DNA from: a virus
Direction: 5' to 3' (one strand)
IMG/VR virus record: IMGVR_UViG_3300046168_000026
Coordinates: 112,265 to 176,264 of that record
Length of the DNA stretch: 64,000 nt
Both the position numbers and the translations under genes were made by a program. Each line of letters starts with the position of its first letter. Within the stretch, counting starts at the first letter, position 1. The notes under the pieces are model-generated. The model did no database searches, was not told the origin of the DNA, and was given only the letters and a program-made list of their open reading frames with translations. This document shows positions 11,800-59,900 of the stretch, piece by piece.

Positions 11800-14202
11800 T
11801 TATTCAGGGAACGCTGCGCCAGTTGGAAGTACATTGAAATCAAGTACTATAAACTCTGCAGTTTTCGCTGGTTGAATAAAGATTTCTCCTTTTAAGATGT
11901 TTCTATCTATAATATCGGGTGTATTGTTTGATTCGTCCATAATAACTCGGAATGCGTAAAGACCTTGTCTTTGTTGTACTGATTCTAAGTAAGGGTTAAC
12001 TATACTTAGGAATCTGTTTCTTGTTGCTGCCGTATTATTTTCGAACAATAAATACCTTGAAGATGATGCGATGAACTTCTTCAATGCGATTAGTAATCTT
12101 CTTACATTAATTCTGTCAAGAGCTGAAGGTCTAGCTTGAAGTGTCTTCTGACCAAATACCGTAGCACCTTGTCCAGGGAATGTAGCGATTGGGTTAATTC
12201 TATTTTCGTATAATGTATCTCTCTCGTCATGAGTCAATCTTGACTTAACTTCGATTACATTTGATAAACCACCTCTATTTAAACCTGCGGGTGCGAACCA
12301 TGGTTCAGCAACTGCGTCATTAAATGCGATAACACCTGGTAATACAACACTTGGTGGTACCCAGACTGGTTTATTTTTGTCTGTATCAAGAATCTTACAC
12401 CATGGGTGATAAGTTCCGACATAGTTTGAATCGAATGAACTTAGTGAGTTAACTACTGTTGAGATTGAATCTGTGTAAGAACCTGCGTCCATTACGAAGA
12501 ATGCATCTTGTCTGTCTTCACACATATCTTTTGCAAAAGTAGTTACTGAAGAGTGTAGTCTATTGATTACACCTGGTAATACTAATAGGTTCATATCATA
12601 TTCATCAGGATTTGACATTGCGCTAATAGCTTTTCTCATTGCGATTGTACCACCTGCGGTTGCTGATGATAAATCCAATCCTTGCATATTACCTGCAACA
12701 ATGTTTGTTCCTGTTAGTACTGTTCTGTTTGGTGCGAATCCATCGAACCCACCTTGGAATGGTACTAAGAATTTTTTATTGTCTATAAGACCATCGTTTA
12801 GTGCAATTGCTGCTCCATTAGAAGTACATTGACTTAATAAGAACTTAGTTCCAACAGTTTCAGAACTTGAGTCTGGAATTGGGTTTAAGTAGTTTAAGTT
12901 ATCTGTATTTGTAAAGTCGAATGAATAACCTAAGAATGCTCTTTTGTTAAATTCATTTGCAATTGACTGGTCTGTTACATATGTAGGACTTGGTAAATTA
13001 TGTCCACTATGTATAGGTGACTTAACTGCTGCGAATCCGAAAGGAACAAGACTTGCATCAAGTGCTCCACCATCCATATCACTATTTACTTCTACTCTAA
13101 TGTTTACAGATGCGTTTGGATAATCCCCATTTGAAGTAACTTTACCATTGTTATCAACAGTAATATACTTGTCACCAATAACTCTTTTAATGTAGTTAGG
13201 TGAATTAGGGTCTAAGTTAAGTCCACTAAATTCTTCTATAATACTTGGTCTAACATCACTATCTTGAACAGTTTGACCAAATATAGAATTAGCAATTTTA
13301 GAAGTATCTACTCTTCGTAGGATAACACTAAATGTTCCGTACTCAGAACCAGGAACTTCATTTGCTGGTTTAATATCTCTAATACCAATTTTAAATTCGT
13401 AGTTTGTCGAAGTACCATGTGACAATGTGTGGAATCTAAATAAGTTTTTACTTGTACCTGATACATCTTGTGATATGATGAAAGGTGTTGAAGCTTCTTG
13501 GTATGCTTTTGTATAGTCAGTTTTTCTAAATGTATCAACTTCTACATTACAATTAGGGTCAGCTGCGAAAGATGACGATTGGAATGAATTGAAGTTCATA
13601 TATAGGTAACCAAATTCCGAACCATTTTTAGGAGATGAACCAAGTGTTTTTCCAATGTAGTTTACTGCGCTTGGGTCTAATGATGCGGTTGCTATTGCAA
13701 GTACTGCTGACTCTGATAAACCTGTTACTGCACCCGATGCACTCATATAAAGTGCGAAGTTAGATGCCGAAACATCTGGTGTTGGTGAAGCTGCTGAACC
13801 ACTCAAGTTTGTTACAAGTGACCTATCAAATGAACCTGTTGAGTTTGCAACACCACCGAAAGGTACTTTTGTAGTAGGGTGAATTACTGCTGCTACTGAA
13901 CCACTAATCTTTAATACTAAAGGTTCAACAGTATAACCACTCTGTCCTAATACTCTTACGATAGTCGCAGTTCCTGCGTCTTCTAAATATGATTGTGCAG
14001 TATAAGGTAGGTATGAATCTTCTGTCAAACCACCAAATACTTGTTGAAATTCTTGAAAGGACTCTACCTGTGTTGGTACGAATGCAGGCCCCTTTATACT
14101 TTGTCCTATAAGTGCCGCACCTATCTCTCCTATACCTTGTGGTAAGAATGAGAGGTCTTTTTCTCTTGTGAATACACCTGGACTAACAATTCTTTCTGCC
14201 AT
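11800..14202 (-). CDS. Tail sheath protein (T4 gp18-like)
   Basis: N-terminal SPGVFTREKD; C-terminal WFAPAGLNRG, NPIATFPGQG, GQKTLQ, LDRINVRRL. Confidence 0.95.
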   Translation of the reverse strand: MAERIVSPGVFTREKDLSFLPQGIGEIGAALIGQSIKGPAFVPTQVESFQEFQQVFGGLTEDSYLPYTAQSYLEDAGTATIVRVLGQSGYTVEPLVLKISGSVAAVIHPTTKVPFGGVANSTGSFDRSLVTNLSGSAASPTPDVSASNFALYMSASGAVTGLSESAVLAIATASLDPSAVNYIGKTLGSSPKNGSEFGYLYMNFNSFQSSSFAADPNCNVEVDTFRKTDYTKAYQEASTPFIISQDVSGTSKNLFRFHTLSHGTSTNYEFKIGIRDIKPANEVPGSEYGTFSVILRRVDTSKIANSIFGQTVQDSDVRPSIIEEFSGLNLDPNSPNYIKRVIGDKYITVDNNGKVTSNGDYPNASVNIRVEVNSDMDGGALDASLVPFGFAAVKSPIHSGHNLPSPTYVTDQSIANEFNKRAFLGYSFDFTNTDNLNYLNPIPDSSSETVGTKFLLSQCTSNGAAIALNDGLIDNKKFLVPFQGGFDGFAPNRTVLTGTNIVAGNMQGLDLSSATAGGTIAMRKAISAMSNPDEYDMNLLVLPGVINRLHSSVTTFAKDMCEDRQDAFFVMDAGSYTDSISTVVNSLSSFDSNYVGTYHPWCKILDTDKNKPVWVPPSVVLPGVIAFNDAVAEPWFAPAGLNRGGLSNVIEVKSRLTHDERDTLYENRINPIATFPGQGATVFGQKTLQARPSALDRINVRRLLIALKKFIASSSRYLLFENNTAATRNRFLSIVNPYLESVQQRQGLYAFRVIMDESNNTPDIIDRNILKGEIFIQPAKTAEFIVLDFNVLPTGAAFPE

Positions 14203-15970: not shown

Positions 15971-17134
15971 TTACCCTATAAAAATTGGTCTTGGTACTCT
16001 GTTTAAAGTTTCCTCTAAGTATTCAGACTCTTCTTTTTTTGCTTCCATTAATGCTCTACGAGAAGTTGATTCTAACATTTCTTTCAAGTCAGTTAACAAA
16101 GTTTCTTTTTCAGCCGAAGCTTCATTTCTTAAATCAGACCCATCAAGTGTTACATCTGCACCTGGTATAGGAATAGAACTAAATTTAGCTCTGATAGCAC
16201 CTAACATTTCTTTTGCTAATGCCAATGCGTATCGTGCAATCCATTGTTTACCTGCACTATTGATATTAGTATATGTTAATCTTCCAAATGGTGCGTTTGA
16301 TAAATCACTTACAACATTTGAATTTGCAATTGGTGATTTACTTTCACTTTCTAATGTATAATCGAAATATACTTTTGCACCTGTATCTTTTCCTTGAGGG
16401 AATGGATATAATCTAATTCGTTGTCCATCTATATGGAATCCATATGATGATTTTCTAATATAATCATTAAATTCAATTGCTTGTAATCTTAATAAGTCAT
16501 CAAACATTGGTTGCATCATGAATGAAACACCTGGCGAGTAATTACCCCATCCAAAAGTTTCTAACATTTGCTGAGAACCTAATCCTGTTCCGATGAATGG
16601 GTCAAAGTATCTTATGATTGCTGGTGGTTGTGTATGGAATACTCGTCTAAGTACGATACCATCATTTACTGAACCATTTTCTAAGTTCACCACATTTGCA
16701 TCAGATAAATCATAAATTTGTTTACCTGCCACCATTTCAAAAGAACCTGTATATACTGTTACTCGTCCACCACTTAATGCTTCAGTACCATAATCTTTTG
16801 CTATACTAACCATACCATTTAGATTTGGTGCAATCTCAGTATCAGACAAATCAGTACCTAAAGCAGTACCTTGTATTGACAACATATTTTCTTTTGCTCT
16901 GTATTGATTTACTTGTGAAGAGTATTCGTTAGCTGCTTCTTCAAGACAAGTAAAAAAGTTTATATCTTGCAACTCGACATCTACGATTGGGTATCCCAAT
17001 CTCTTCGCACACCATTCTGCTACTTTCGGAGCGTCATTCTGAAATTGAGTATCAGAATCAAAGAATCCGAAAGGAGTTGATGAACCACTTGAAAATGAAC
17101 CTGAACCAGGCCATATTGGAATGTTTACTGCCAT
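15971..17134 (-). CDS. Neck protein (T4 gp13-like)
   Basis: Contains RLGYPIVDVEL, WIARYALALAKEMLG.IRAKF..IPIPG..VTLDG and terminal PIFIG. Confidence 0.75.
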   Translation of the reverse strand: MAVNIPIWPGSGSFSSGSSTPFGFFDSDTQFQNDAPKVAEWCAKRLGYPIVDVELQDINFFTCLEEAANEYSSQVNQYRAKENMLSIQGTALGTDLSDTEIAPNLNGMVSIAKDYGTEALSGGRVTVYTGSFEMVAGKQIYDLSDANVVNLENGSVNDGIVLRRVFHTQPPAIIRYFDPFIGTGLGSQQMLETFGWGNYSPGVSFMMQPMFDDLLRLQAIEFNDYIRKSSYGFHIDGQRIRLYPFPQGKDTGAKVYFDYTLESESKSPIANSNVVSDLSNAPFGRLTYTNINSAGKQWIARYALALAKEMLGAIRAKFSSIPIPGADVTLDGSDLRNEASAEKETLLTDLKEMLESTSRRALMEAKKEESEYLEETLNRVPRPIFIG

Positions 17135-17152: not shown

Positions 17153-17160
17153 TATAAATA
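17153..17160 (-). promoter_or_regulatory. Putative late promoter TATTTATA (neck operon)
   Basis: Motif upstream of the GAGGAG SD and the gp13-like ATG. Confidence 0.6.
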
Positions 17161-17169
17161 TGGAAATAA

Positions 17170-18981
17170 TTAGCTTTCCCTATTTTCCATGAACGAAACT
17201 ACAATATAACGAGTACCTTTAGTGGTTGCACGCGCTCCATGCTTATGAGTTATATTGCCAGGATGTAATGTTGCGTAACCAATTGGATTTTTTACTAACT
17301 TCTTTTGTCTTCTGAACCAAGTACCACCACCTTCGTATTCATCTAAATCTGATAGTTGTACTAAACAAGTAATATCTGCCCTATCGTGATGTATTCCCAA
17401 GTGTCCTTGTGCAGTTGGTATATATTTTGCTAAAAAGTTTTCGGAACTCATACTATCCCATCCTTTACCTTCTAACGCCCATAAATATACTGCAACTTGC
17501 ATAACATAGTCTTTCAATACATCATTATATATCTCGTCCATTCCAATTTCTGTTATCAACATATCAGTTGTTGGGTAATTTTCATGTCGGTCAAAAGTCC
17601 ATCTATTAGAATGTTCGGCTTCTTCTCTAATCATTTTACAAAATTCTTCAGTAAATAAAGGAAATTGAAAACAACTATCAAATGGTTCGTCTACTATCAA
17701 ATCCCATTCCTTTGTACGAGCTGAATATGATATGAATTTTTTTGTCCACTCATCTTTGTTGTCCCAATATGTGTATAGTTCTGGATGAAGTTTTTCAAAT
17801 CCAAAATCTTCTGGCGGAGTAAATCCTCTTGCCTCATCTGGTAACTTATCATTCACCAAATTATACCACTCTACATATCTGTCACTCCAATTTTGTTTTC
17901 TTGCAAATTGTTCAGCACTATCTAACAACTTCTTGTGTTCTTTTACTTGTTGACTTGAAAAAGCAAATGCTGCGATAAATGTATATCGCATAAGGCCTGT
18001 ATTTTTATTTTCCCATTTGTAGTTATCAGGGGAACTATCATCAAATGGAGTTTCACCTGACTCATGAGTATGTGAACTTATTAATGTACTTTTATTATCG
18101 AGTAAGTGTTTTAAATTACCTGTATCAGATGATAGAAGTTTAACTCTACCCATCATCATTTCAAGAGCAGTTATACAATATGTTTCAGGATACTGAGATG
18201 GGTAAATCCACCACTCAGAAGATTTAATTTGTTTGTATAACTCAGATGGATTTAGTGAACCTAAATAATGTACATCAAAGTCTCTTTCATAAGTTGGGTA
18301 ATCTTTTTTTATTCGTTCTAAAGTGTCCCAATCATTAGTATAAGGTGGTGATGCAACCCACAAAGTTAAATTAGGATTAATGTTTTTTAAATCATCCCAA
18401 ATATTTAACAGATTCCACAATCCTCTATCAGGTCCAGATGTGTAAATTACTTTGTCTTTAAATTTTTCTTGTTGGATGGAATCAAAGTCGGATGGGTTTA
18501 TAGCATTTCCTATAACTTTAACCTTTTCAGAGTTTAAATTATATTTTTTCACTAATTGACCCTTTTGCCACTCTGATACTGCGATTATATTTGTTAATTT
18601 AGGATGGTTTAGATAATCTACTCCATCATTTGGAAGAGTCTCACCATTATACCATGAATAGAACTCTAAATTATGTATCCAAAAGTAAGAACTATCGAAT
18701 GTTATATTTTTATCTTCTAAAACTTTAAAGTAATGAATGTAATTTGATGCAATAACAACATCAAAGTGTTGATTGTTATCAATACTGTCATAATCAATAA
18801 ATTTTAGATTATTTGTTTGACTATTTGAAACTTCACCTGTAATTATTACCTCGTGACCTTTCTTTTCAAACTCTTTAGCTAAGTTAATGACGCAATATTC
18901 AGAACCACCCATACCTTTTTGTTTTAGTATGGTGTCATTAATTGGTTCGTTTTGATATCCTACTGTAAATAAAACTCTCAT
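17170..18981 (-). CDS. GT4-type glycosyltransferase fused to a PLOD/lysyl-hydroxylase-like 2OG-Fe(II) dioxygenase
   Basis: N-terminus has GT-B motifs GMGGSE, IIAVSEWQ and YPETYCITALE. C-terminus FPLFTEEFC..ENYPTTD..NFLAKY..HHD..YEGGGTWF..LHPGNITHKHG..GTRYIVVSF parallels the procollagen-lysine hydroxylase catalytic domain. Confidence 0.85.
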   Translation of the reverse strand: MRVLFTVGYQNEPINDTILKQKGMGGSEYCVINLAKEFEKKGHEVIITGEVSNSQTNNLKFIDYDSIDNNQHFDVVIASNYIHYFKVLEDKNITFDSSYFWIHNLEFYSWYNGETLPNDGVDYLNHPKLTNIIAVSEWQKGQLVKKYNLNSEKVKVIGNAINPSDFDSIQQEKFKDKVIYTSGPDRGLWNLLNIWDDLKNINPNLTLWVASPPYTNDWDTLERIKKDYPTYERDFDVHYLGSLNPSELYKQIKSSEWWIYPSQYPETYCITALEMMMGRVKLLSSDTGNLKHLLDNKSTLISSHTHESGETPFDDSSPDNYKWENKNTGLMRYTFIAAFAFSSQQVKEHKKLLDSAEQFARKQNWSDRYVEWYNLVNDKLPDEARGFTPPEDFGFEKLHPELYTYWDNKDEWTKKFISYSARTKEWDLIVDEPFDSCFQFPLFTEEFCKMIREEAEHSNRWTFDRHENYPTTDMLITEIGMDEIYNDVLKDYVMQVAVYLWALEGKGWDSMSSENFLAKYIPTAQGHLGIHHDRADITCLVQLSDLDEYEGGGTWFRRQKKLVKNPIGYATLHPGNITHKHGARATTKGTRYIVVSFMENRES

Positions 18982-18983
18982 AT

Positions 18984-20270
18984 CTATTCTACTATATAAT
19001 TAACAAATTCTTCGTTTTTACCATATCTGTCATAATCTCTATAACTGATATCTTTTATTGAATGGTTTTTTTCATAATCCCACATCCAATCTTCTTTTCC
19101 TAATTCCTCAAATCTATCCTTTATTTGAGTATCATAATAATCTCTAATTAACCTTGCTCTTCGGTTAATATCAACTCTATTGTTGTCAACAGTAGAGTCT
19201 CCATTATTATATTGTACATATAACATTTTTTTAAGATGAATAAATTTAGTTTCTAAAAATGTTTTAATAATTAATTCTAAATCATCTGCGACTGAAATAT
19301 TTCTATTGTGTCCTCTGATTTTATGATACACATCTCGATTCCAAACTCTACAATGGTTTGGCATCCCAATATTAAATCTAATTGTTTTTGGATTTATTTC
19401 AGGATAATGATGTACTAACCACTCTTTATCATCAATCTCTTGCCAAGTATGACCTGCGTAACCCCATACAAATCCATTCTCAGAATGACCATACCAATCA
19501 TCACCTATGTAACCATATATTCTCGGTGAATTATCCTTTTCAACTTCAGTTACATCTGTATAAATAAATCCAGCATCTGTATGTTTCTTACTTGCATCAA
19601 GAACATCTTCTAAACAAGTTGATATTAACCAATCATCGTGGTCTAATTCAAATAACCACTCACCATTACATAACATTGCCGCTCTATGTTTAGCCTCACC
19701 AACATTTCCACCTGATATTGGTGATATTCTATATGGTTTTACCCTATAATCTAATTTAGCTATATGATTTATCATTTGCCAAGTTAAATGATGGTCTTCT
19801 GGTGAATCATCTACCACAACCCACTCCCAATTCTGATATGTTTGTTCTAATAGAGATTTGTATGTTCTAAATATTCTATTTTCAGTTTTATATGTTGGAG
19901 TGAATACTGATAATAGTGGTGAATCTTCATTACTATAAACTCTATTTGATTCACATGACCAAAAAGTTGACTGACAAACTACATCATTCGCTATTACATT
20001 ATCAGGATAAATTTCTTCTGCATTAACTATCTTAGATTTTACAATATCATCGGTTACATTTTGTAATTCCGATGGAATTTCACCTATTACATAAATAATA
20101 TCAGCTTTATGTTTGGATAAATGTGATTTCCAATTTTTAGCATCTCTGTATGAATAAATTACAACATTTTCGAATAAATCTTCTTCGTGATAGATGTCGG
20201 ATGTTAATTCGTATTTACCAAATCGTTTCCAACCATATACTAATGCCGTTGGTAAAGTAGTCTTTTGCAT
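18984..20270 (-). CDS. GT2 family glycosyltransferase
   Basis: Contains SVFTPTY, SLLEQTYQNWEWVVVDDS, ELDHDD (DxD) and ADDLEL. Confidence 0.9.
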   Translation of the reverse strand: MQKTTLPTALVYGWKRFGKYELTSDIYHEEDLFENVVIYSYRDAKNWKSHLSKHKADIIYVIGEIPSELQNVTDDIVKSKIVNAEEIYPDNVIANDVVCQSTFWSCESNRVYSNEDSPLLSVFTPTYKTENRIFRTYKSLLEQTYQNWEWVVVDDSPEDHHLTWQMINHIAKLDYRVKPYRISPISGGNVGEAKHRAAMLCNGEWLFELDHDDWLISTCLEDVLDASKKHTDAGFIYTDVTEVEKDNSPRIYGYIGDDWYGHSENGFVWGYAGHTWQEIDDKEWLVHHYPEINPKTIRFNIGMPNHCRVWNRDVYHKIRGHNRNISVADDLELIIKTFLETKFIHLKKMLYVQYNNGDSTVDNNRVDINRRARLIRDYYDTQIKDRFEELGKEDWMWDYEKNHSIKDISYRDYDRYGKNEEFVNYIVE

Positions 20271-20273
20271 ATC

Positions 20274-20876
20274 TTATCTGTAAGGTTCACCACCAACCCA
20301 TAAAACAAATGATTTTCGTATACCACTTGTTACGGGAGTTACTCTATGTAAATAAAATGAAGGAAATATAATCGCTGCTCCTTTTTTAGAAGGTGCAGTC
20401 AATTCTTTTCCAATATTAAATTGTAAGTCACCACCTTCGTATTCATTTGAATCTGAAAGTTGTACTGTTACTGATATTTTTCTTTGATTTTGTATCTCTA
20501 TACCACAATCCATATGCCAATCATACCCACCTTCTTGACTTCCGTAATATTCAGTATATTGAATTGATTCATTCATAGTAGATAAATCAAACTTCCACAT
20601 TTTTTGATTTGATTCTACAATCATATTGTGAAGTTTTTCATAAACCCATCCCCATTCTTGATTTTGAGGACACCATTTTACTCTTGATTTTCTATAATCT
20701 GATTTTTTTGATGATTCACCTTCACCTGTTGCTGCATCTTCAAATGGAAGGAGTTTGGTCATTTGTTCTATTTGACTTAATTCAGTTGAATCAAACCCAT
20801 CTGCGAACCAATAATAATCTGTGAAATTTACATCCCATCTATGAGGGTTTCTATCGAATCCAAAATTTGCTCTCAT
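20274..20876 (-). CDS. 2OG-Fe(II) oxygenase (prolyl-hydroxylase/PKHD-like)
   Basis: HxD...H triad (WHMD...LHRV), plus RKISVTVQLSD, YEGGDL and RKSFVLW. Confidence 0.9.
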   Translation of the reverse strand: MRANFGFDRNPHRWDVNFTDYYWFADGFDSTELSQIEQMTKLLPFEDAATGEGESSKKSDYRKSRVKWCPQNQEWGWVYEKLHNMIVESNQKMWKFDLSTMNESIQYTEYYGSQEGGYDWHMDCGIEIQNQRKISVTVQLSDSNEYEGGDLQFNIGKELTAPSKKGAAIIFPSFYLHRVTPVTSGIRKSFVLWVGGEPYR

Positions 20877-20895: not shown

Positions 20896-20903
20896 TATAA
20901 ATA
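20896..20903 (-). promoter_or_regulatory. Putative late promoter TATTTATA (oxygenase/GT operon)
   Basis: Sits between the collagen stop (20915) and the oxygenase ATG (20876). Confidence 0.6.
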
Positions 20904-20914
20904 TGAAAAATAAT

Positions 20915-23900
20915 TTAGTAAAAGCTACCACTATGTACAGACCTTATGATATAGACATCATCACCTGAAGACCATCCATTTGGTTTAAATGTTAGTATAC
21001 CACCTTGAACTTCAAAATATCCTAAACCACTCATCGAAGCCCCTTGAGCACCAATTACACCTTTTACACCTTGAACACCCGTATTACCTTTAACGCCAGT
21101 ACGACCACCTGAGCCAGTTGCACCTTTATTACCTGCATTACCTTGAGCACCTTGAACACCACCACCACCTGTTGTACCTTTAGAACCTTTATCGCCTGAA
21201 TTACCTGTTTTACCTTTTAGACCTTGTAAACCTACTGCGCCTGTATTACCTTTATCACCTGCGAGGCCTGTATTCCCTTTAATACCCGTTCTACCGCCAG
21301 AGCCAGTTGCACCTTTATTACCTGCATCACCTTGAGCTCCAACTGCACCTTGGTTTCCTGTATTACCTTTAGAACCCTTATCGCCTGCATCACCTTGAGC
21401 TCCAACTGCACCTTGTAAGCCCGTTGCACCCGTATTACCTTTATCACCTGCTACGCCTGTATTACCTTTTACACCAGTACGACCACTTGAACCAGTTGCA
21501 CCTTTATTACCTGCATCACCTTGAGCTCCAACTGCACCTTGATTACCTTGGTTACCTTTTGCACCTTTATTACCTGCGAGGCCGGTATTACCTTTATTTC
21601 CTTTAACACCTTGGTTACCAGTATTTCCTTTATTACCTGCATCACCTTGAGGACCTGTTGCACCTTTTACACCTGTTCTACCACCTGAGCCAGTAACACC
21701 TTTATTACCTGCAGCACCTTGAGCACCAAGTAGACCTTGATTACCAGTATTTCCTTTAGAACCCTTATCGCCTGAGTTACCTGTTTTACCTTTTAGACCT
21801 TGTAAACCTACTGCGCCTGTATTACCTTTGTTTCCGGCAACACCCGTATTACCTTTTACACCTGTTCTACCACCTGAGCCAGTAGCACCTTTATTACCTG
21901 CATTACCCTTAGTACCTTTATCACCTTGGTTACCAGTATCTCCTTTAGCACCTTTATCACCTGCGAGGCCTGTATTACCTTTTAGACCTTGTAAACCTAC
22001 TGCGCCTGTATTACCTTTGTTACCTGCATCGCCAGTATTACCTTTTACACCTGTTCTACCAGTTGAGCCAGTAGCACCTTTATTACCTGCATCACCTTGA
22101 GCTCCAATTGCACCTTGTAAACCTACTGCGCCAGTATTTCCTTTAGAACCTTTATCGCCCGAATTACCTTTTGCACCTTTTAGACCTTGTAAGCCCGTTG
22201 CACCCGTATTACCTTTATTACCTGCGAGGCCTGTATTCCCTTTAATACCCGTTCTACCACCTGAGCCAGTAGAACCCTTATTACCTGCGAGGCCTGTATT
22301 TCCTTTAACACCTTGGTTACCAGTATTTCCTTTACTACCCTTATTACCTGCATCACCTTGAGCTCCAACTGCACCTTGTCGACCTACTGCGCCTGTATTA
22401 CCTTTGTTACCTGCTACGCCTGTATTACCTTTACACCAGTACGACCACCTGAGCCCGTACCACCTTTATTACCCGTATTTCCTTTTGCACCTGTTAGTCC
22501 TGTATCACCAGTATTTCCCTTAGCACCTTTATTACCTGCGAGGCCTGTATTTCCTTTATTTCCTTTAGCACCTTGATTACCTTGATTACCTTTAGCACCT
22601 GCGAGGCCTGTATTTCCTTTTGCACCTGTTGCACCTGCCGAACCTGCAGCACCTTTATTACCTGCGAGGCCTGTATTTCCTTTTACACCTTGGTTTCCTG
22701 TATTACCTTTAGAACCTTTATCGCCTGAATTACCTGTTTTACCTTTTAGACCTTGTAAGCCCGTTGCACCCGTATTACCTTTATTACCTGCGAGGCCTGT
22801 ATTCCCTTTTACACCTGTTCTACCACCTGAGCCAGTAACACCTTTATTACCTGCAGCACCTTGGTTACCCTTAACACCTTGATTACCAGTATTTCCTTTA
22901 GCACCTTTATTACCTGCGAGGCCGGTATTACCTTTATTTCCCTTTGCACCTTGGTTTCCTGTATTACCTTTAGCACCTGCAACACCCGTATTACCCTTAA
23001 CGCCTGTTCTACCAGTTGAGCCAGTAGAACCTTTATTACCTGTATTACCTTTGTTACCCTTAGCACCTTGGTCACCTGCCGAGCCAGTATTACCTTTTGC
23101 ACCTTTATTGCCCGAATTACCTTTTGCACCTTTTAGACCTTGTCGACCTGTGTTTCCTGTTGACCCTTTGTTTCCTGCAGAACCCGTATTACCCTTAACG
23201 CCTGTTCTACCACCTGAGCCAGTAGAACCTTTATTACCTTGAGCACCTTGGTTACCCTTAGCACCTTGTAGACCTGTATTTCCTTTAGCACCAGTTTCAC
23301 CTGCGAGGCCTGTATTTCCCTTTGAACCTTGATTACCAGTATTTCCTTTAGCACCTTTATTTCCTGCGAGGCCTGTATTTCCTTTTGAACCTTGTCGACC
23401 ACTGATTCCAGTAGCACCTTTATTTCCTGCAAGACCCGTATTACCTTTTGAACCTTGATTACCAGTATTTCCTTTTGAACCTTTTGCACCTGCGAGGCCT
23501 GTATTTCCCTTTGAACCTTGATTACCAGTATTTCCTTTAGCACCTTTATTACCTGCGAGGCCTGTATTTCCTTTTGCGCCTGTTCTACCACCTGAGCCAG
23601 TAGAACCTTTATTTCCTGCGAGGCCTGTATTTCCTTTTGAACCTTGTCGACCTGTATTACCTGTTGAACCTTTATTACCTGCGAGGCCTGTATTTCCTTT
23701 AGCACCTTGTAGACCCGTATTTCCTTTAGCACCTTGGTTACCTGCGAGGCCTGTATTACCCTTTACACCTGTTCTACCAGTTGAGCCAGTAGAACCTTTA
23801 TTTCCTGCGAGGCCTGTATTTCCTTTAGCACCTTGATTACCAGTATTTCCTTTTGAACCTTTTGCACCTGCGAGGCCTGTATTTCCTTTTACACCTTGGT

Positions 23901-25167
23901 TTCCTGTATTACCTTTTGACCCTTTTGCACCTGCGAGGCCTGTATTTCCTTTTGCGCCTGTTCTACCACCTGAGCCAGTAGAACCTTTATTACCTGCGAG
24001 GCCTGTATTTCCTTTAACTCCTTGTGCTCCTGTTGCACCTTGTGAACCAGTTGCACCTGTATTTCCTTTTACACCTTGTCGACCTGTATTACCTGTTGAA
24101 CCTTTATTACCTGCATTACCCTTTAAACCTGTTGGACCTTGAGGGCCAGTTGCGAAACCGAGTCCAGCTATACCTGTATTACCCTTTAAACCTGTTGGAC
24201 CTTGAGGGCCTGTTGCAGCTGATGCACCTGTAGCTCCCTTTGCACCCTGTCCTCCAGAAGAAGCATTTGAACCTGCATCACCTGCAGCTCCTTTTGCACC
24301 TTGAGGACCTGTGGAACTATCTGAATCGGAACAATTATTACAAGATGTATAAGCTTGATAATTACCTGAACTGTTTAAACATAGTTGAGTACCATCAGGA
24401 CTAACTGACCCTTGATTTTCATAACAAGTAGTACCTATTTTTATTACAGTAGAATTAAATTCATCTTGAAATGCAAATTCAAAATAAGCATCATCACTAC
24501 ATCTTGAAAATTCATAGGCGTACTCACATTCCTCTTCCCCGAATCCTTTATCGTTGTGTACTATGAATCTATTAACTAAGAACAAGTCAGATTCTTCAAT
24601 ATCTAATTTTGATACTGGAAACTGACCTAATAAACTTGGATTCTCGGTATTTACTTCTTGAAAACCACCTGTAACTGGCACATATTCAAATGTAGAGTTA
24701 TCTGATTTTAATTTTACTAAGTAATGGTTACTATATTCGTCTGAACCCCATTCGATTCCATCTAATTGTTCAAAGTAAATATTCCACCCGCTTTGAATAG
24801 AAGAAGTGGTTTCGGTCTCTTCATCCCAAACAACTTGTCTATTTTTCTGTGCAACAAGGATATATTCTTGGTCTGTAACTGATAAGGAACCTGATGGTGT
24901 TTCTAATGTATATACATTTGCAAACTTTAAGGTATTAGAGTTATTTGCAATAGACCAAACAACTTCTTCATTTTCATTTAATTGAATATATGAAAAATCA
25001 TTGAAACTACCCGTCCATGTAGTTGGTATATCATTTTGAAATGTATATCCACTCCCACTAAGACTAATACCTACAATAGTTGACCCTGAATTTATATTTT
25101 TTAATTCAGAAGTAGACCCTTGTAGATTTACTAAAGTATGTTGTGTATTTAAAAATCCAACTGCCAT
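20915..25167 (-). CDS. Collagen-like fibre 2 (~1417 aa): N-terminal Hint domain, Cys-rich linker, Lys/Asn-rich Gly-X-Y helix, short C-terminal domain; apparent 1-nt deletion near 22430
   Basis: ORF 22414..25167 continues as Gly-X-Y in the next frame to a TAA at 20915 (…GASMSGLGYFEVQGGILTFKPNG…HSGSFY). Length+1 is divisible by 3. The Hint domain ends FLVNRFIVHN at 24553. Confidence 0.85.
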
Positions 25168-25184: not shown

Positions 25185-28100
25185 TTATGAAGAACCACTT
25201 GTATACATTAATACAACAAATTTTGTACTTCCACTCTGAAATGTTAATAATCCATCAGTTGCCGAGTATGCAAATCCACCACTTGGACCTACTTCAGCGC
25301 CACCAATTAATGTTCCAATTCCACTTGCACCTTTCTGACCTTGTCCACCTTGAAGACCTTGAGCGCCTTGAGAACCTTTTGGTCCTTGAGCACCTTGAGC
25401 CCCCGTAGGACTTGCACCTTGAGCACCTTGAGGACCTTGAGCACCTTGAGCACCTTGGTCACCTTGAGGACTTGCACCTTGAGCACCTTGGTCACCTTGA
25501 GGACCTTGAGCACCTTGTGCACCAGTTGGACTGGCACCTTGTGCACCTTGAGAACCTTTTGGTCCTTGAGCACCTTGAGCCCCCGTAGGACTTGCACCTT
25601 GAGCACCTTGGTCACCTTGAGGACCTTGTGCACCTGTATCTCCTTTTGGACTTGCACCTTGAGCACCTTGGTCACCTTGAGGACCTTGAGCACCTTGTGC
25701 ACCAGTTGGACTGGCACCTTGAGCACCTTGAGAACCTTTTGGTCCTTGAGCACCTTGAGCCCCCGTAGGACTTGCACCTTGAGCACCTTGGTCACCTTGA
25801 GGACCTTGTGCCCCTGTATCACCTTTAGGACTTGAACCTTGAGCACCTTGAGCACCTTGGTCACCTTTAGGACCTTGAGCACCTTGAGGACTTGCCCCTT
25901 GAGCACCCGTTGCTCCTTGAGCACCTTGAGGACCTTGAGCACCTTGAGCTCCCGTAGGACTTGCACCTTGAGCACCTTGGTCACCTTTAGGACCTTGTGC
26001 ACCTGTATCTCCTTTTGGACTTGCACCTTGAGCACCTTGGTCACCTTGAGGACCTTGAGCACCTTGAGCACCTGTTGGACTGGCACCTTGAGCACCTTGA
26101 GAACCTTTTGGTCCTTGAGCACCTTGTGCACCAGTTGGACTTGCACCTTGAGCACCTTGGTCACCTTGAGGACCTTGTGCCCCTGTATCACCTTTAGGAC
26201 TCGAACCTTGAGCACCTTGAGAACCTTTTGGTCCTTGAGCACCTTGAGCACCTTGAGGACTTGAACCTTGAGCACCTTGAGAACCTTTTGGTCCTTGAGC
26301 ACCTTGTGCACCAGTTGGACTTGCACCTTGAGCACCTTGGTCACCTTGAGGACCTTGAGCACCTTGAGCACCTTGGTCACCTTTAGGACTTGAACCTTGA
26401 GCACCTTGGTCACCTTGAGGACCTTGAGCACCTTGTGCACCAGTTGGACTGGCACCTTGAGCACCTTGAGAACCTTTTGGTCCTTGAGCACCTTGAGCCC
26501 CCGTAGGACTTGCACCTTGAGCACCTTGAGAACCTTTAGGACCTTGAGCACCTGTATCACCTTTAGGACTCGAACCTTGAGCACCTTGGTCACCTTGAGG
26601 ACCTTGAGCACCTTGTGCACCAGTTGGACTGGCACCTTGAGCACCTTGAGAACCTTTTGGTCCTTGAGCACCTTGAGCACCTTGAGGACTTGCTCCTTGA
26701 GAACCTTTTGGTCCTTGAGCACCTTGAGCACCTGTATCACCTTTAGGACTTGAACCTTGAGCACCTTGAGCACCTTGGTCACCTTTAGGACCTTGTGCTC
26801 CCGTAGGACTTGCACCTTGAGCACCTTGTGAACCTTTTGGTCCTTGAGCACCTTGAGCACCTTGAGGACTTGAACCTTGAGCACCTTGAGAACCTTTAGG
26901 ACCTTGAGCACCTGTATCACCTTTAGGACTCGAACCTTGAGCACCTTGGTCACCTTGAGGACCTTGAGCACCTTGTGCGCCAGTTGGACTCGAACCTTGT
27001 GCACCTTGAGAACCTTTAGGTCCTTGAGCACCTTGTGCACCAGTTGGACTGGCACCTTGAGCACCCGTATCTCCTTTAGGACCTTGTGCACCTGTATCTC
27101 CTTTAGGACTTGAACCTTGAGCACCTTGAGCACCTTGGTCACCTTTAGGACCTTGTGCTCCCGTAGGACTTGCACCTTGAGCACCCTGTGAACCTTTTGG
27201 TCCTTGAGCACCTTGAGCACCTTGAGGACTGGCACCTTGAGCACCCGTATCTCCTTTAGGACCTTGTGCACCTTGAGCACCTTGGTCACCTTTAGGACTA
27301 GCACCTTGAGCACCTTGGTCACCTTGAGGACCTTGAGCACCTTGTGCACCAGTTGGACTGGCACCTTGAGCACCCGTACTTCCTTTAGGTCCTTGAGCAC
27401 CTTGAGCCCCCGTAGGACTTGCACCTTGAGCACCTTGAGAACCTTTTGGTCCTTGAGCACCTTGTGAACCTTTTGGACTGGCACCTTGAGCACCTTGTGA
27501 ACCTTTTGGTCCTTGTGCACCTGTATCACCTTTTGGACTTGCACCTTGAGCACCTTGAGAACCCTTTGGTCCTTGTGCACCTTGAGCACCTGTTGGACTT
27601 GCACCTTGAGCACCTTGAGAACCTTTAGGACCTTGAGCACCTGTATCACCTTTAGGACTCGAACCTTGAGCACCTTGTGAACCCTTTGGTCCTTGTGCAC
27701 CTGTATCACCTTTTGGACTGGCACCTTGAGCACCTTGAGAACCTTTTGGTCCTTGAGCACCTTGAGCACCTGTTGGACTTGCACCTTGAGCACCTTGAGA
27801 ACCCTTTGGTCCTTGTGCACCTTGAGCACCTGTTGGACTCGAACCTTGAGCACCTTGAGAACCCTTTGGTCCTTGAGCACCTTGTGAACCCTTTGGACTT
27901 GAACCTTGAGCACCTTGAGAACCTTTTGGTCCTTGAGCACCTTGAGCCCCCGTAGGACTAGCTCCTTGAGCACCTTGTGAACCCTTTGGTCCTTGTGCAC
28001 CTGTATCACCTTTTGGACTGGCACCTTGAGCACCTTGTGAACCTTTTGGTCCTTGTGCCCCTGTATCACCTTTAGGACTCGAACCTTGAGCACCTTGAGA

Positions 28101-28895
28101 ACCTTTTGGTCCTTGAGCACCTTGAGCACCTGTTGGACTTGCACCTTGAGCACCCGTAGTTCCTTTTGGTCCTTGAGCACCTTGAGCACCTTGAGGACTT
28201 GCACCTTGTGAACCTTTTGGTCCTTGAGCACCTTGAGCACCTTGAGGACTTGCACCTTGTGAACCTTTTGGTCCTTGAGCACCTTGTGCGGATGAACCTG
28301 ATGAACCTTGAGCACCTTGAGAACCTTTTGGCCCTTGAGCACCTTGAGAACTTGCACCTTGAGCACCTGTAGCTCCCTTTGCACCCGTTGAACCAGATGA
28401 ACCTGCCGAACCTTTTTGTCCTTTTTGTCCTTTAGCACCTTGAGGACCTGTATTGTGTATTAGTAACTCACCTACAAAGTAATTATGGTCTGGTTCTACT
28501 TCGATACTTATAAGTTCTATTGGTTTTTCAACTAATTTTACTGAAGTTATCTTTATTCCATTGAAAAATGGTGTAGTACCACATTTACAATCACCACAAC
28601 CACATGATTCGTTACCGACTGGTGAAACCCATTCACCATCTTTATATATTTTTATATCGACAGAAGTTTTTAGCTCAGTTCCGTCTGAAAGTTTAATTTG
28701 TAAGTAGGAGTCGAGAGTTCTTTCCCATTTGGTTACAACCTTATTGTACCTAATGACCCCATTTTCAACATCATAACCTTTTATATAGTCACCAAGTTCA
28801 ATATTAGACAAATTGATTGGAACGCCTTGTCTATTATTTACTCTTCCTTTGATGTCTACTAAGGTATCTTTATGTAATCCATGTATATGTTCCAT
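25185..28895 (-). CDS. Collagen-like fibre 1 (1236 aa): N-terminal Hint domain, ~1040-aa periodically interrupted Gly-X-Y helix, short C-terminal domain
   Basis: Hint-like GLHKDTLV...[18 protein letters not shown]|T (ends 28452), then ~20-aa/60-bp repeats [20 protein letters not shown]. Confidence 0.9.
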
Positions 28896-37427: not shown

Positions 37428-39089
37428 TTATCCGCTTATTGCCTCTAAACCATGACAAATTACTTTACCATAGAACTCACCTCTTACCATTTGTTTAGCG
37501 TAACGAGTCATTACACCTTTTCTTGGTTGGAAGTTAGTTGGGTCATACACAAGAGGAGTCATAATTAATGGAATGTATGGAGCGTAAACTGCACCAGTTT
37601 CCAAGAATTGAGAACCTTTGAATCCTAATAGAATTACATTCTCTTTCATGTATGGGTTTTTGTACACTTGGTATCTGTTAGCGAAAGAACCTACTTGGCT
37701 TACACCAAACGCAAATTGCATTTCGTTACCTGTACCATTTGACTGATAACCTGGAATAGACTCGATGATAGTAGCAACATCAGGAGATACTACCATAAAG
37801 TTTGCTCCACCTCTCATTGTCTTAGCGTGGATTTGGTTAGAAACTCTCTGTAACTGAGTACCTAAAGTCTGGAACCATTGTTGTTGAGTATATCTCTCAA
37901 CTGCTGCGTTAAGACCACTTGAAGTGAATTTACTACCATCCCAAGAATATCCGATTCTAGCAGACCACTTAGCTTCAGTTAAAGCGTTTTCCATTAACAT
38001 ATCTAAGATTTCTAAGTCAATCTCTTGTGAGATGTACTCAGATAACATAGAAGTTAATTCAGCTTCAGCGTCAATTGAGTGATAAGCGTTTAAATCTTGT
38101 GCGAACTCAGGAGTCCATTGTGCTTTCAACTTTCTTGTCTTAGCTACGATTGGAACACTTCTAAGTTCAACATTCAATTCTGGAATACCTAAGTCTGAAC
38201 CACCTGAAGTTGTGTCTTCAAAGTCACCTCTTGTAATGTCAGTTGGTTGCTTTTGGTATTTTACTTTAACACCAGCGATTGCGTTAGTAGCACCTACTAA
38301 TTTAACCATGAATGATACTGAGTTAGACCCAGAAACATTTGCTTTAGTGTATGCAGGATAGTAAGCTGCGATGTTAGAACCACTAATTTCGAATGCTCTT
38401 ACGCCTTCTAAATCAGCACCACTTAACGATGCGTTAGCTACTGTTACTCTTCTTAACAATGCTCTATCAGCTGCTGATAAAGATTGTGAGAAGCTTGAAT
38501 CATAATCGATTGCTGGGTCTAAAGCGACACCATTTGCGAATGATTCAGATGTAAATGTACTAGCTGCCGCTACTGCTCCAGCTGCTGCTTGAGTTAAAGG
38601 TCCAGATTCAGTCTCGTTGATTGAATATGCAAATCTTCCTGCTCCGTAAAGACCTTCACTTGCTTCACTTGCAGTTTCAGTTACACCGAATACTGAGTCA
38701 GTTTGTGAATCTTTACCTGCACCAGTTTCAAATCCTGGTTGTGCAGTACCATATTTAAAGTCTAAGTAAAATACCAGACCTGATGGTAAGTTCATTGGTT
38801 GTACGCTAACGAATTCTTTTGCAGCGATTTCGCTGAAAATTCTTCTAACCAATGGAAGTGCTACACCTGCCCACTCTTCAGAGTTTGCGGATGTACCTGT
38901 TGAAGAAGCTTCTTTTACTAATTCTCTTGCTTGGTTTTCAAGTAGAGTAGCAATAGTACTTCTTTCAAAATCAGACTCGATACCTTCTAAAAGGCCAGTC
39001 TTGTCCCACTTAGATACTAATCCTTTTGCCTCATCAGACATTTTCTTAGTATACCCAGCGGATTCGTTTAATAATGAATTTGTATCCAT
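37428..39089 (-). CDS. Major capsid protein (T4 gp23-like)
   Basis: Contains LPLVRR, VQPMNLPSGLVFYL, AKTRKLKAQWTPEFAQDLNAYH, YAPYIPL and FQPRKGVMTRYA. Confidence 0.95.
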   Translation of the reverse strand: MDTNSLLNESAGYTKKMSDEAKGLVSKWDKTGLLEGIESDFERSTIATLLENQARELVKEASSTGTSANSEEWAGVALPLVRRIFSEIAAKEFVSVQPMNLPSGLVFYLDFKYGTAQPGFETGAGKDSQTDSVFGVTETASEASEGLYGAGRFAYSINETESGPLTQAAAGAVAAASTFTSESFANGVALDPAIDYDSSFSQSLSAADRALLRRVTVANASLSGADLEGVRAFEISGSNIAAYYPAYTKANVSGSNSVSFMVKLVGATNAIAGVKVKYQKQPTDITRGDFEDTTSGGSDLGIPELNVELRSVPIVAKTRKLKAQWTPEFAQDLNAYHSIDAEAELTSMLSEYISQEIDLEILDMLMENALTEAKWSARIGYSWDGSKFTSSGLNAAVERYTQQQWFQTLGTQLQRVSNQIHAKTMRGGANFMVVSPDVATIIESIPGYQSNGTGNEMQFAFGVSQVGSFANRYQVYKNPYMKENVILLGFKGSQFLETGAVYAPYIPLIMTPLVYDPTNFQPRKGVMTRYAKQMVRGEFYGKVICHGLEAISG

Positions 39090-56973: not shown

Positions 56974-59900
56974 TTATCCACAATACAAGTATCCATATAC
57001 ATTTTCCATTCTACCATTAGAATCCCATGAAGAGGATATCATACACTTAGCAACTGTATATGAAGTATGTGATTGTCTTTCTTCGTAAAGTGGACTTGAA
57101 CCACTAAATGAAGTTACCACCCACTCTGATGGTTGTTTCATTAGATAACCAGGCGTATCTGATGAACATAGTAAATCTCCTTTATTTACATCACCACCTT
57201 GGTTACACAATTTAAAACCAGGTAAAACAAATGAACCTGATTCATCCTGCGTTACACTATCCCCAATCGAAGCCACTTTCCAAATTTCTTTAGAACCTGT
57301 TTGACTTACAGGAATATAATCGCCAAATGAATCTTTTCTTGATGCGGAGTAGTATTCCTCAGGTGGGGTAAGTTCGTCTGAATCACTTGTATCATTTTTT
57401 CCTAATCCAAATCCTTCAAATTTCTGAACATAACTTAGTTCAAGTTTTTCCCACAGAATTCCAACAACATTAGTGTCTTTTGCAGTTGTGACTTTATGAA
57501 GTTCATTATTTACACCTAATTTAACCAAGTCACCAGAATTAATATCTGATGTTACATCTTTTTTGTATTGGTGTCCAAGTGTTGTTTCAAGGCCGGATGG
57601 TCCAGTCGGTGCGGGTGATAACTTAGATGATGTATTGTGTGAAAGTATTCCATTTGAAACATAGTTGTGAACTACATCTAATTCATAATTCCAAACTTCA
57701 ACTTCTTCATCAAAAGTTTCTATACTTTTTATTTTATCAATAACTAAGTTTTCACCATCGGCAACATACAACTCACCACCAACTCCAAGCTCATCTATTG
57801 CAATTGCAGAATTTGGATAATCAGGATGATATAGTAAATGTGAGTTAGAACATTTTAGTTCTTTGCCCGATTCTGTTTTTATTAAACTCCATCCTTCAAC
57901 TTTATCTCTAGTAATGTGGTCAATCGGTGACCAATCCCATTCTTTAGTTTCAAAGTTAAATACTTTGATTATATCATCGTCTTTTGTATCTTCTATATTT
58001 ATCTCACCTCTTTTAGTAATTATTTTAGTACCAGGCAATACACAACTATAACTTCCACCATATGCAGTTGAAATTGCAGTCAATTCAGTATCAATATCAT
58101 CTTCAAGGTTTGTAAATCTTGTAGCAGCATTTTTAACTGTTCCATCACTATCTCTAAATCTTGGTACTTTTAGAATTAAACCAGTTGCGTCAACACCAAA
58201 CATGGTATTAAATGCTTTTGTTGTACTACCAGACTTGAAGGTTGCGGTATCTTCAAGAATTCCTTTAAATGTTGCAGTACCATCTTGTGCAATTTTAAAT
58301 TGAGGTGCTGAAATATATCCTGAAGAACCTAATGTAAACTCACCATAAGTATCATTTGAGGTTGCCGTTCCTTTTGTTCCAATATGTGATGAACCAATTG
58401 TCCACCCACCAATAGAACCAGCTCCTGCGGTTACTGTACCATCAATGGATAATGTAGTTCCATCAAATTCAAGTTTTGGTGAACTTGTACCACCCATTTT
58501 AAATGTTCCTTTATCAAGACTTATTATAGAACCGTTGGTAGTACTTAAATTGTTAGACCTAATTGTTCCTGTCTTAATTGAATCACCACTAATTGTAGTA
58601 GAACCACCACCACCTGCGAACTCGGTAACTTTTATATAATCTATATATACCTTACCTGGTGCGTTATTATAGTTTACAAGAATCATTGGTGCAAATGCGT
58701 TTGTTGTAGTCCAAACTTGACCTGGGTCATGAATGTTTGGGTGAACGCCAGAAGTCTGGTAAGTTCCTGCAGTACCCTTAAAGTAACCTTTGTATATTAC
58801 CCATTCACCAATCGTTGGTTGTGCACCACTTGCAGCAAAGTAGTGTTGACTATTATAATTACCCCCCGTACCAGAAGTACTACCCGCAGCATTAATTGCG
58901 GTAAGTTTAGTACTACCATCTGTATGTAATGAAGATGAGAAGGCAGTTATACCTGCGTAAATGTAATTATAAGAACCTGCAGCTCTCTGTACTCTAACTT
59001 CTATTTCATATAATGAGTTTGGATTAAATGGCATAACAGTATTTGAACTAAGCCAGGCCATGTCGTCAGTACCAGAATTATTACCAATTATAGCTACTGG
59101 CCCAAAGAATTGTCCGTAGTCTGTATCTGTAATTGAATCGTTTGCGGTGATAGCTCCACTAACTAAAGCCATTCCTACACCTGAACCATCTAATTTTGGA
59201 TTTTTTCCTTGGTCTATATATGAGGGTCTTGCTTCTCGTGTTGCTGCGTTAAAGTCTTCAAAGTATAATGCTTCTGGTTGATTTCTACCTACAAGTTCAA
59301 CATCACCACTAATTTTAATATTACCATTAGAACCACTAATAGATGTTAGTCCTCTACCAAAATAAAATTCTTGTACTGCGAAGTCAACGCCTGAACCTGA
59401 TATCAATAATGTTTTAGCCGTATTGTCCCATGCGAAGTAACCTGCTCCTAATGCACCCGAACCACTACCTAAATAGAAGTTACCATCATTATCCATAAAC
59501 GCACTCATGTCGTTTATTGTAGCTGCGGCAGTTAATGTATTATGGTATCCAAGAACTTCACTATTCATTACCAACCCAGCTGGCGCGGGGAATGGAATTG
59601 CGGATAATGTATCACCTAAGAAACTAAAGTCTTGATTGTCTGCACCTTGAGCGCCTGTACTTCCTTTTGCACCTGTTGAACCTGCCGAACCTGCTGCACC
59701 TTTTCCACCTTTTCCACCTTGAGCACCTTGACCACCTTGAGCACCTTTTCCACCCTGAGCACCTGCCGAACCTTGTTTAGATTTAGAGAACGACATGGTT
59801 TTTGCAATTATTACCTTTTGTGAACCACTACCACTAATTGCATTAATTTCTAATGAACCAGAATCTTTTGTTAGGGCGGTTATCTTAAAGTGATTATGTC

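Follow-up and report, generated by a model that had tools for sequence, protein, structure and literature searches.

A tailed-phage gene joins a GT-B glycosyltransferase to a relative of the collagen lysyl hydroxylases, beside genes for collagen-like proteins

Introduction

Do tailed bacteriophages encode enzymes for the hydroxylation of collagen lysines and the glycosylation of the hydroxylysine (Hyl) that results? The question is raised by a gene of the virus in IMG/VR record IMGVR_UViG_3300046168_000026, of which we analysed a stretch of 64,000 nucleotides (positions 112,265 to 176,264 of the record; hereafter the window, in whose numbering positions are given unless the genome is named). 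The gene lies at 17170-18981 on the minus strand, and its product joins a glycosyltransferase (GT) of the GT-B fold to a lysyl hydroxylase (LH) domain; it is called the fusion in what follows. In the literature searched, collagen lysine hydroxylation and Hyl O-glycosylation are described for animals and mimivirus, and we found no lysyl hydroxylase or hydroxylysine glycosylation in tailed phages in the full-text literature, subscription journals not covered. A 2022 review describes prokaryotic collagens as mostly without such modifications and, among viruses, mentions mimivirus only (PMC8968730).

The genome, that of an uncultured phage from a marine setting, is 176,264 bp long, is estimated to be 97% complete and carries T4-like sheath, neck and baseplate genes. 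A search of the genome for psbA was negative, so nothing points to a cyanophage. We find that the fusion links a bacterial-type sugar transferase with a genuine homologue of the collagen lysine hydroxylases of animals and giant viruses. It is probably a bifunctional enzyme acting on the collagen-like fibre proteins of the phage itself, in consecutive steps centred on Hyl, and our confidence is higher for the LH part of this proposal than for the acceptor of the GT-B domain.

Results

The C-terminal domain is a homologue of the collagen lysyl hydroxylase domain

The gene is an intact open reading frame (ORF) of 603 codons with its stop codon at 17170-17172, assigned as a GT-B::LH fusion from the ORF list, Pfam, PDB sequence matches and homologue clusters. 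Its C-terminal domain (residues 396-603; 17173-17796, minus strand), a PLOD/LH-type Fe(II)/2-oxoglutarate (2OG) dioxygenase by phmmer, Foldseek and mapped residues, is truly homologous to the LH domains of human LH3 and mimivirus L230 and keeps every catalytic residue. When the whole protein was searched against PDB sequences, residues 393-599 aligned with residues 498-714 of the human LH3 chain (E 9e-31), and the LH domain of L230 followed with an E value of 7e-22. A phmmer search with the LH domain gave E values of 4e-31 for LH3, over 207 residues (9-215 of the 219-residue query domain), and 2e-22 for L230. The best non-LH dioxygenase in the PDB search was PiuC, at an E value of only 0.13; the similarity to LH3 and L230 lies about 30 orders of magnitude above that to any other solved dioxygenase. 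Pfam places an OGFOD2-like match (PF25238, 41.5 bits against a cut-off of 31) over residues 395-501.

An earlier note on this DNA, made from the sequence alone, had claimed that this domain follows the LH3 catalytic domain motif by motif, and the alignment agrees: FPLFT..FC, ENYPTTD, NFLAKY, HHD, YEGGG, LHPGNITHKH and GTRYIVVSF are all present and aligned. An AlphaFold2 model of the fusion, built with 49 homologues as input, has a mean pLDDT of 87.5, and Foldseek superimposes its C-terminal half on L230 (6ax6_B) with a TMt of 0.88 and a root-mean-square deviation of 1.9 Å over 205 columns at 31% identity, including the N-terminal helical extension; matches to LH3 chains have E values of about 3e-20. 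L230 is experimentally shown to be a collagen lysyl hydroxylase (Guo 2018, PMC5802723). The functional residues named in that paper and in Scietti 2018 (PMC6082870) were mapped onto the fusion through the phmmer alignments. The iron-binding triad H531/D533/H581 corresponds to H825/D827/H877 of L230, and the 2OG ligands Y520 and R591 to Y814 and R887; all of these are invariant in 49 family members.

The N-terminal domain is a GT-B glycosyltransferase

The N-terminal domain (residues 1-377; 17851-18981, minus strand), delimited from Pfam, alignments, the secondary structure of the AlphaFold2 model and Foldseek, is a GT-B enzyme of the GT4 type and not a GT-A enzyme. Pfam matches to Glyco_transf_4 (PF13439, 36.3 bits, cut-off 28.5) and Glycos_transf_1 (PF00534, 30.3 bits, cut-off 26.4) sit in residues 124-300. 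In the model, residues 1-377 form the two-Rossmann GT-B fold, with a disordered and poorly modelled insert at 306-326, and are joined to the LH domain by a linker (378-395) that is of very low confidence over 385-395. The Foldseek matches of this half are retaining GT4 enzymes with TMt values of 0.66-0.72: PimA (2gej, TMt 0.72), MshA (3c4q), BshA, Bacillus anthracis BA1558 (2jjm) and the alpha-1,2-glucosyltransferase tll1591 (7fg9). The GT4/GT-B assignment made in the earlier note is thus upheld by Pfam matches above cut-off, by the E-x7-E motif and by these fold matches.

A glycine-rich loop (G23, G26), H103 and the E-x7-E motif (E266...E274, within ETYCITALE) are invariant or nearly so; across the 49 sequences E266 is nearly invariant and E274 invariant. 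From membership of the GT4 family, sugar transfer from a nucleotide sugar is predicted to be retaining. Across the 49 homologues, which reach down to 27% identity, the catalytic residues of both domains vary little or not at all, and because the iron triad, the 2OG ligands, the glycine-rich loop, H103 and E-x7-E are all kept, both domains look catalytically competent.

Two collagen-like proteins beside the fusion are candidate substrates

On the minus strand the gene order is collagen A, collagen B, a small 2OG oxygenase, a GT2 glycosyltransferase, the GT-B::LH fusion and a gp13-like neck gene, with gaps of 2-3 nt among the three enzyme genes. The phage setting proposed in the earlier note is thereby sustained: the genome is that of a T4-like phage, and the fusion stands beside plausible collagen substrates. 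Collagen-like protein B (20915-25167) has a Pfam Collagen match with an E value of 8e-92 and was read by three-frame translation; collagen-like protein A (25185-28895, 1236 residues), the second candidate substrate, was recognised from the ORF list, positional counts and weak Pfam Collagen matches.

X-Lys-Gly is the site used by collagen lysyl hydroxylases, and the lysines of both proteins fall almost entirely in the matching position. In about 350 scored G-X-Y triplets of collagen B, Lys occurs 114 times in Y and 3 times in X; in collagen A, whose repeat unit ends in (T/K), the counts are 41 and 0. Taken together, the scored Gly-X-Y runs of both proteins have 155 Lys in Y and 3 in X. For Arg, the placement in collagen B is the opposite (18 in X, 0 in Y). 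The Lys of collagen B is mostly followed by G-N or G-S, where a stabilising KGD/KGE pair would have an acidic residue.

The reading frame of collagen B changes near 22429-22437 (minus strand). Frame 0 runs ...GGRTGVKVIQA to a stop at 22414, and the -1 frame continues GVKGNTGVAG... for another 504 residues to the C-terminal cap. At this site the window has GGTGT-AAAGG where similar repeat units of relatives have GGTGTTAAAGG. The frame change may reflect a 1-nt assembly error within a repeat or a genuine frameshift mutation; alternatively, a -1 slip on A-AAG would give rise to short and long products. Elsewhere in the window, a 2341-residue ORF (56974-63999, minus strand) that runs off the window end has one weak collagen-repeat match, at an E value of 6e-6 and below the cut-off.

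Two further enzymes complete the trio. The GT2 (GT-A) glycosyltransferase (18984-20270, minus strand; 428 residues) lies 2 nt from the fusion gene, matches Pfam PF00535 with an E value of 5e-17 and has chondroitin synthase as its best PDB match (E 4e-12). It is kept in the same slot across all related T4-like loci and is a candidate additional or first sugar transferase; GT2 enzymes are inverting (CAZy). The small 2OG-Fe(II) oxygenase (20274-20876, minus strand; 200 residues), the first gene of the trio, is of the PKHD/prolyl 4-hydroxylase type, with a Pfam PF13640 match (E 1e-13) and PDB matches to PKHD-type hydroxylases. NCBIfam returned only sub-threshold generic matches, among them a match of the small oxygenase to a Fe2+-dependent dioxygenase model (E 1e-20, below that model's cut-off). 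The enzyme is a candidate hydroxylase for Pro or another residue. Pro in collagen A is found almost only in X (G-P-K-G) and in S-P-(T/K/Q)-G breaks; were the small oxygenase a prolyl hydroxylase, its target would be Pro in the X position or in interruptions, unlike that of the animal prolyl 4-hydroxylase.

The same modules are split and fused in other phages

The order of the cassette is kept in 13 + 8 related T4-like loci, including contigs whose fusion proteins are 60-99% identical to that of the window and keep the whole arrangement. A sister lineage, whose neck and sheath proteins are about 70% identical, has a triple fusion GT-B::GT25::LH in the same slot, together with GT2, the small oxygenase and the collagens. 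That the GT25 domain of this lineage replaces GT2 was considered and rejected; the triple-fusion phages keep GT2 too. A different phage group, in which neck and sheath queries found no match, carries GT25::LH; its LH domain is 45-51% identical to that of the window in most loci and 76% in one. Six of the eight GT25::LH loci have upstream collagens with Lys almost only in Y (e.g. 84 against 3 in X) together with a homologue of the small oxygenase. Small-oxygenase homologues of 44-48% identity precede GT-B or GT25::LH in these distant phages.

In the two GT25::LH loci examined for it, a stand-alone GT-B gene lies directly upstream and abuts or overlaps the start of GT25::LH. The stand-alone proteins are 31-35% identical to the GT-B domain of the fusion (E 3e-54 and 9e-40) and have the motif ETYCITALEM in common with it. 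The fusion of the window thus joins genes that are neighbours elsewhere, a classic sign of a shared pathway. Just downstream of GT25::LH, this group also has ATP-grasp genes (L038:11822-12748, L044:11745-13705), some weakly TTL- or R2K-like and one resembling D-Ala-D-Ala ligase; L038 has in addition a small HAD phosphatase-like gene downstream of GT25::LH. These ATP-grasp and HAD genes may provide further peptide-modifying steps.

Pfam and the domain probes described below found no GT25 match within the 603-residue fusion. The genome does encode a free GT25, a single-domain protein of 252 residues at genome positions 38251-39009 (minus strand), outside the window and about 91 kb from the fusion. 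It matches PF01755 (E 3e-16), has human COLGALT1 as its best PDB match (E 1e-13) and is 37% identical to the GT25 domain of the triple fusion P0070. The GT25 domains of the sister enzymes and the free GT25 match the COLGALT1 catalytic domain with E values of 1e-13 to 6e-13, and solved bacterial GT25 proteins far more weakly (0.003 to 0.09 where listed). Three near-complete genomes show a complementary distribution, only suggestive at this number: a triple-fusion phage with no other GT25 and two GT-B::LH phages with one separate GT25 each. One such separate GT25 is a 517-residue frame with two tandem GT25 domains (G006, C1:122061-123512), a two-lobe layout that recalls COLGALT1. The neighbours of the free GT25 encode a SET-domain protein, a methyltransferase, an APS-kinase-like P-loop protein, a cytidylyltransferase, a flavodoxin-like protein and thymidylate synthase.

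Since the modules are split, doubly fused or triply fused across phages, the fusion is no one-off but one form of a predicted modular pathway by which phages would modify collagen lysines. The earlier note had suggested a single hydroxylate-then-glycosylate enzyme. Both domains named there are present, but the one-enzyme picture is incomplete, as the cassette also holds GT2 and a small 2OG oxygenase and a free GT25 is encoded elsewhere in the genome.

The fusion belongs to a large marine family outside the PLOD-type clade

The fusion has homologues in more than 300 clusters (90% identity) with the same architecture, almost all from marine metagenomes, and a search with the LH domain only gave 1932 matches among 1.8 billion representatives. 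Sorting with jackhmmer probes for the GT-B, GT25, PLOD GT-A, accessory and LH domains distinguished LH proteins with no N-terminal module (about 200-250 residues), GT25::LH (about 440), GT-B::LH as in the window (about 560-600), GT-B::GT25::LH (about 740-860) and the PLOD type with GT-A, accessory domain and LH, in some cases plus a further GT25. In the window fusion only the GT-B and LH probes find a match, those for PLOD GT-A and the accessory domain finding none; the PLOD-type representatives, in turn, have both of these domains and no match to the GT-B probe, which bears out the contrast with GT-A drawn in the earlier note.

A maximum-likelihood tree of 65 LH domains, unrooted, agrees with a larger quick tree. 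The phylogeny of the dioxygenase domain had been proposed with PLOD1-3 and L230 as references; in the tree made here their place is taken by PLOD-type representatives recognised by PDB match. These form a clade with support of 100/100 on a long branch, and the fusion LH domain lies outside it, in a separate clade (100/99) of 29 rows, almost all of them GT-B-bearing. Within this clade GT-B::LH and GT-B::GT25::LH proteins interleave, the triple fusion P0070 pairing with a GT-B::LH row (99/87), and bacterial GT-B::LH proteins are nested among them. As the tree is unrooted, neither gain versus loss of GT25 nor the direction of gene flow among phages, bacteria and eukaryotes can be read from it. 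Failing both the architecture and the clade test, the fusion is not a PLOD protein, and its position outside the PLOD-type clade makes it a separate assembly of LH with a glycosyltransferase. The independent assembly suggested in the earlier note stands to this extent; it was no singular event, given a marine family of more than 300 clusters in which the modules occur split, doubly fused and triply fused.

A megablast search of the 12-kb region against deposited phage genomes gave no match, and tblastn against deposited phages gave only partial, single-domain matches of 25-27% identity, e.g. to hypothetical proteins of Synechococcus phage S-CAM9 and Roseobacter phage CRP-6. Among the matches listed, from which records of the same or a very near genome may be excluded, the fusion is in no deposited phage record. 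Scans of viral contigs with the more distant triple fusions P0136 and P0128 gave no loci.

A Hyl-centred pathway and its alternatives

The following scheme would account for the cassette. The LH domain, using Fe(II), 2OG and O2, would hydroxylate the Y-position Lys of G-X-K-G in collagens A and B; its substrate would probably be the still unfolded chain, ahead of triple-helix formation. An inverting enzyme would then place the first sugar on Hyl; the candidates are the free COLGALT1-like GT25 (38.3-39.0 kb of the genome) and the adjacent GT2, alone or together. By analogy, and from the linkage of GT-B, GT25 and LH, the fused GT-B would add the second sugar, extending the Hyl-linked glycan in the role that the retaining GT-A of LH3 has in animals. 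An order of steps that copies the animal pathway is the most likely one. What the data show are the identities of the domains, their fold and conserved catalytic residues, the conserved neighbourhood of the gene and the splitting and fusing of the three modules; we infer lysine as the target, the collagens as the substrate, the step order, the sugars and the stereochemistry of the linkages.

Several observations weigh against this scheme and are given here with the alternatives on which they bear. The geometry between the GT-B and LH domains is uncertain in the model (pTM 0.63). The aromatic dimer pocket of L230 is only partly kept, with W501 for Y798 and I537 for Y831; Y801 falls in an indel beside the invariant W508 of the fusion, and the position of the dimer-contact residue Leu873 is held by a nearly invariant Ile577. 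No collagens lie near two of the eight GT25::LH loci. Bacterial collagen-like proteins with KGD/KGE salt bridges (e.g. L022) typically have Lys in Y as well, so the positional bias alone is no proof of targeting by an LH.

The abundance of Thr in collagen B, as common in Y as Lys (110 against 114), raises the possibility that the GT-B domain, perhaps along with GT2, glycosylates Thr or Ser in G-X-T, so that the LH domain hydroxylates collagen Lys and the two halves act on a shared substrate and not in consecutive steps. GT4 acceptors are very diverse, and the collagen-like region of Bacillus BclA offers a parallel, being glycosylated on Thr. We consider this reading unlikely, because in the lineages examined GT-B is linked, by fusion or adjacency, with LH and a COLGALT1-like GT25, which fits a single Hyl-centred pathway better, and because collagen A, though poor in Thr (20 in Y), is retained beside the cassette.

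A more distant alternative, which we judge improbable, is that the LH-like domain has a target other than collagen Lys, be it a different residue, a different structural protein or a small molecule; the fusion would then be a general glycan or cell-envelope modifying enzyme whose place near the fibre genes is incidental. The gating loop of the animal enzymes is relevant here. The region equivalent to LH3 590-610 is 9 residues shorter in the fusion, D597 and R599 of LH3 are deleted, and H613 is replaced by Leu475; the second iron site is half kept, with H466 and D473 at the positions of LH3 H595 and D611. L230, a proven LH, likewise differs in the gating loop in its own alignment to the fusion, and we therefore regard the loop and the second iron site as features of the animal subgroup. 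Some homologues bear the generic JGI label 'glycosyltransferase involved in cell wall biosynthesis'.

The bacterial homologues bear on the same alternative. GT-B::LH genes are carried by Granulosicoccaceae, a Bugula-associated Chromatiales bacterium and Rhodobacteraceae including Aliishimia, where they stand alone amid housekeeping genes. The expectation that they would adjoin collagen genes had to be rejected, with no collagen-like ORF within 10 kb. Collagen-repeat proteins are encoded elsewhere in the carrier genomes and are rich in Y-position Lys in at least two of them; in Aliishimia, a 785-residue collagen-like ORF about 1.3 Mb from the GT-B::LH gene has 64 Lys in Y against 1 in X. This collagen belongs to the KGD/KGE type, where helix stability already leads one to expect Lys in Y, and such distant collagens are weak evidence, as the Pfam collagen model also matches 4 of 14 control genomes. 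What also speaks against a non-collagen target is the similarity to LH3 and L230 over the full domain, set far above that to other solved dioxygenases, the recurrence of the linkage to Lys-in-Y collagens in two different phage groups, and the coupling of the module to COLGALT1-like GT25 domains.

That the gene is an inactive relic, or a structural or chaperone protein with these folds and no catalysis, is highly improbable: its ORF is intact and conserved in many contigs, the catalytic residues of both domains persist across the 49 homologues, and we found no direct support for a relic.

The cassette lies in a late structural block

The gp13-like neck (head-tail adaptor) gene (15971-17134, minus strand; PHROG 211, head-tail adaptor Ad2, E 3e-14) lies directly downstream of the fusion, which makes the cassette part of the late structural block; the tail sheath gene is at 11800-14202. 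A promoter-like octamer, TATAAATA on the plus strand and TATTTATA on the coding strand, occupies 20896-20903, 20 nt upstream of the start codon of the small oxygenase. Further copies precede the neck gene (17153-17160) and other structural genes. The window holds 17 copies against 7.8 expected, a number reached in 0 of 100 shuffles; sites include 14240, 14581, 17153, 20896, 36636, 37353, 47108, 50827 and 54287. Most copies lie just upstream of the starts of minus-strand genes, structural genes among them. Judged by this placement, the octamer may be a late promoter of the phage group, and its copy before the enzyme trio suggests late co-expression with the structural genes. Scans for sigma-70 promoters and terminators gave nothing above chance.

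Comparison with known systems

If active, the cassette would extend collagen Hyl chemistry to bacteriophage virions and supply compact cytoplasmic enzymes, which could probably be expressed in E. coli, for the production of hydroxylated or glycosylated recombinant collagens; it would also be a natural experiment in which a GT-B fold takes the role held by the GT-A domain of LH3. The cassette bears, too, on the origin of the animal PLOD/COLGALT machinery. A wider proposal, which we put forward as tentative and think doubtful as a whole, is that the animal Hyl-glycosylation pathway has a complete modular counterpart in tailed marine phages and some marine bacteria (LH, COLGALT1-like GT25 and a second transferase, which in the window phage is GT-B in place of GT-A), its modules repeatedly split and fused; that phage neck or tail fibres bear glycosylated Hyl; and that this microbial and viral pool is the evolutionary reservoir of the eukaryotic and giant-virus PLOD/COLGALT enzymes.

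Among the closest systems are the sister phage enzymes. GT-B::GT25::LH proteins such as P0070 (788 residues) have orthologous GT-B and LH domains, the LH domain of the window fusion being 77% identical to that of P0070, and the shorter GT25::LH form has its GT-B as a stand-alone gene upstream, in a cassette with collagens and a small oxygenase as in the window. The difference lies in the GT25, which is part of the polypeptide in the sister enzymes and a separate, distant gene in the window phage.

The GT-B domain itself has the two-Rossmann fold, glycine-rich loop and E-x7-E motif in common with the retaining GT4 enzymes matched by Foldseek, although sequence identity to them is only 10-15%. 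In the literature searched we found no GT4 enzyme that is joined to a dioxygenase or that acts on hydroxylysine.

L230 of Acanthamoeba polyphaga mimivirus (LH domain residues 680-895, PDB 6ax6, 9nev), a bifunctional collagen lysyl hydroxylase and hydroxylysine glucosyltransferase, resembles the fusion in being encoded by a virus as one polypeptide, with a glycosyltransferase at the N terminus and an LH domain at the C terminus; its substrates are collagen-like proteins of the virus itself. The two LH domains are homologues with the close structural match given above and with identical iron and 2OG ligands. The PLOD-type relatives have GT-A and accessory domains whereas the phage fusion has GT-B/GT4; the host of mimivirus is an amoeba and that of the phage a bacterium; and the L230 dimer pocket is conserved only in part in the phage protein.

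In humans, LH3/PLOD3 (PDB 6fxk, 8zgc) and COLGALT1/GLT25D1 carry out the pathway Lys -> Hyl -> Gal-Hyl -> Glc-Gal-Hyl, in which Gal and Glc are galactose and glucose. LH3 is built as GT-A, accessory domain and LH, in contrast to the GT-B::LH of the phage, which has the shorter gating loop and incomplete second iron site described above and no endoplasmic reticulum as its context; the phage GT25 differs from COLGALT1 in being a separate single-domain protein of 252 residues. The LH catalytic domain is nevertheless the same, and the phage has a COLGALT1-like GT25 and, by family assignment, both inverting and retaining transferases, as does the animal pathway.

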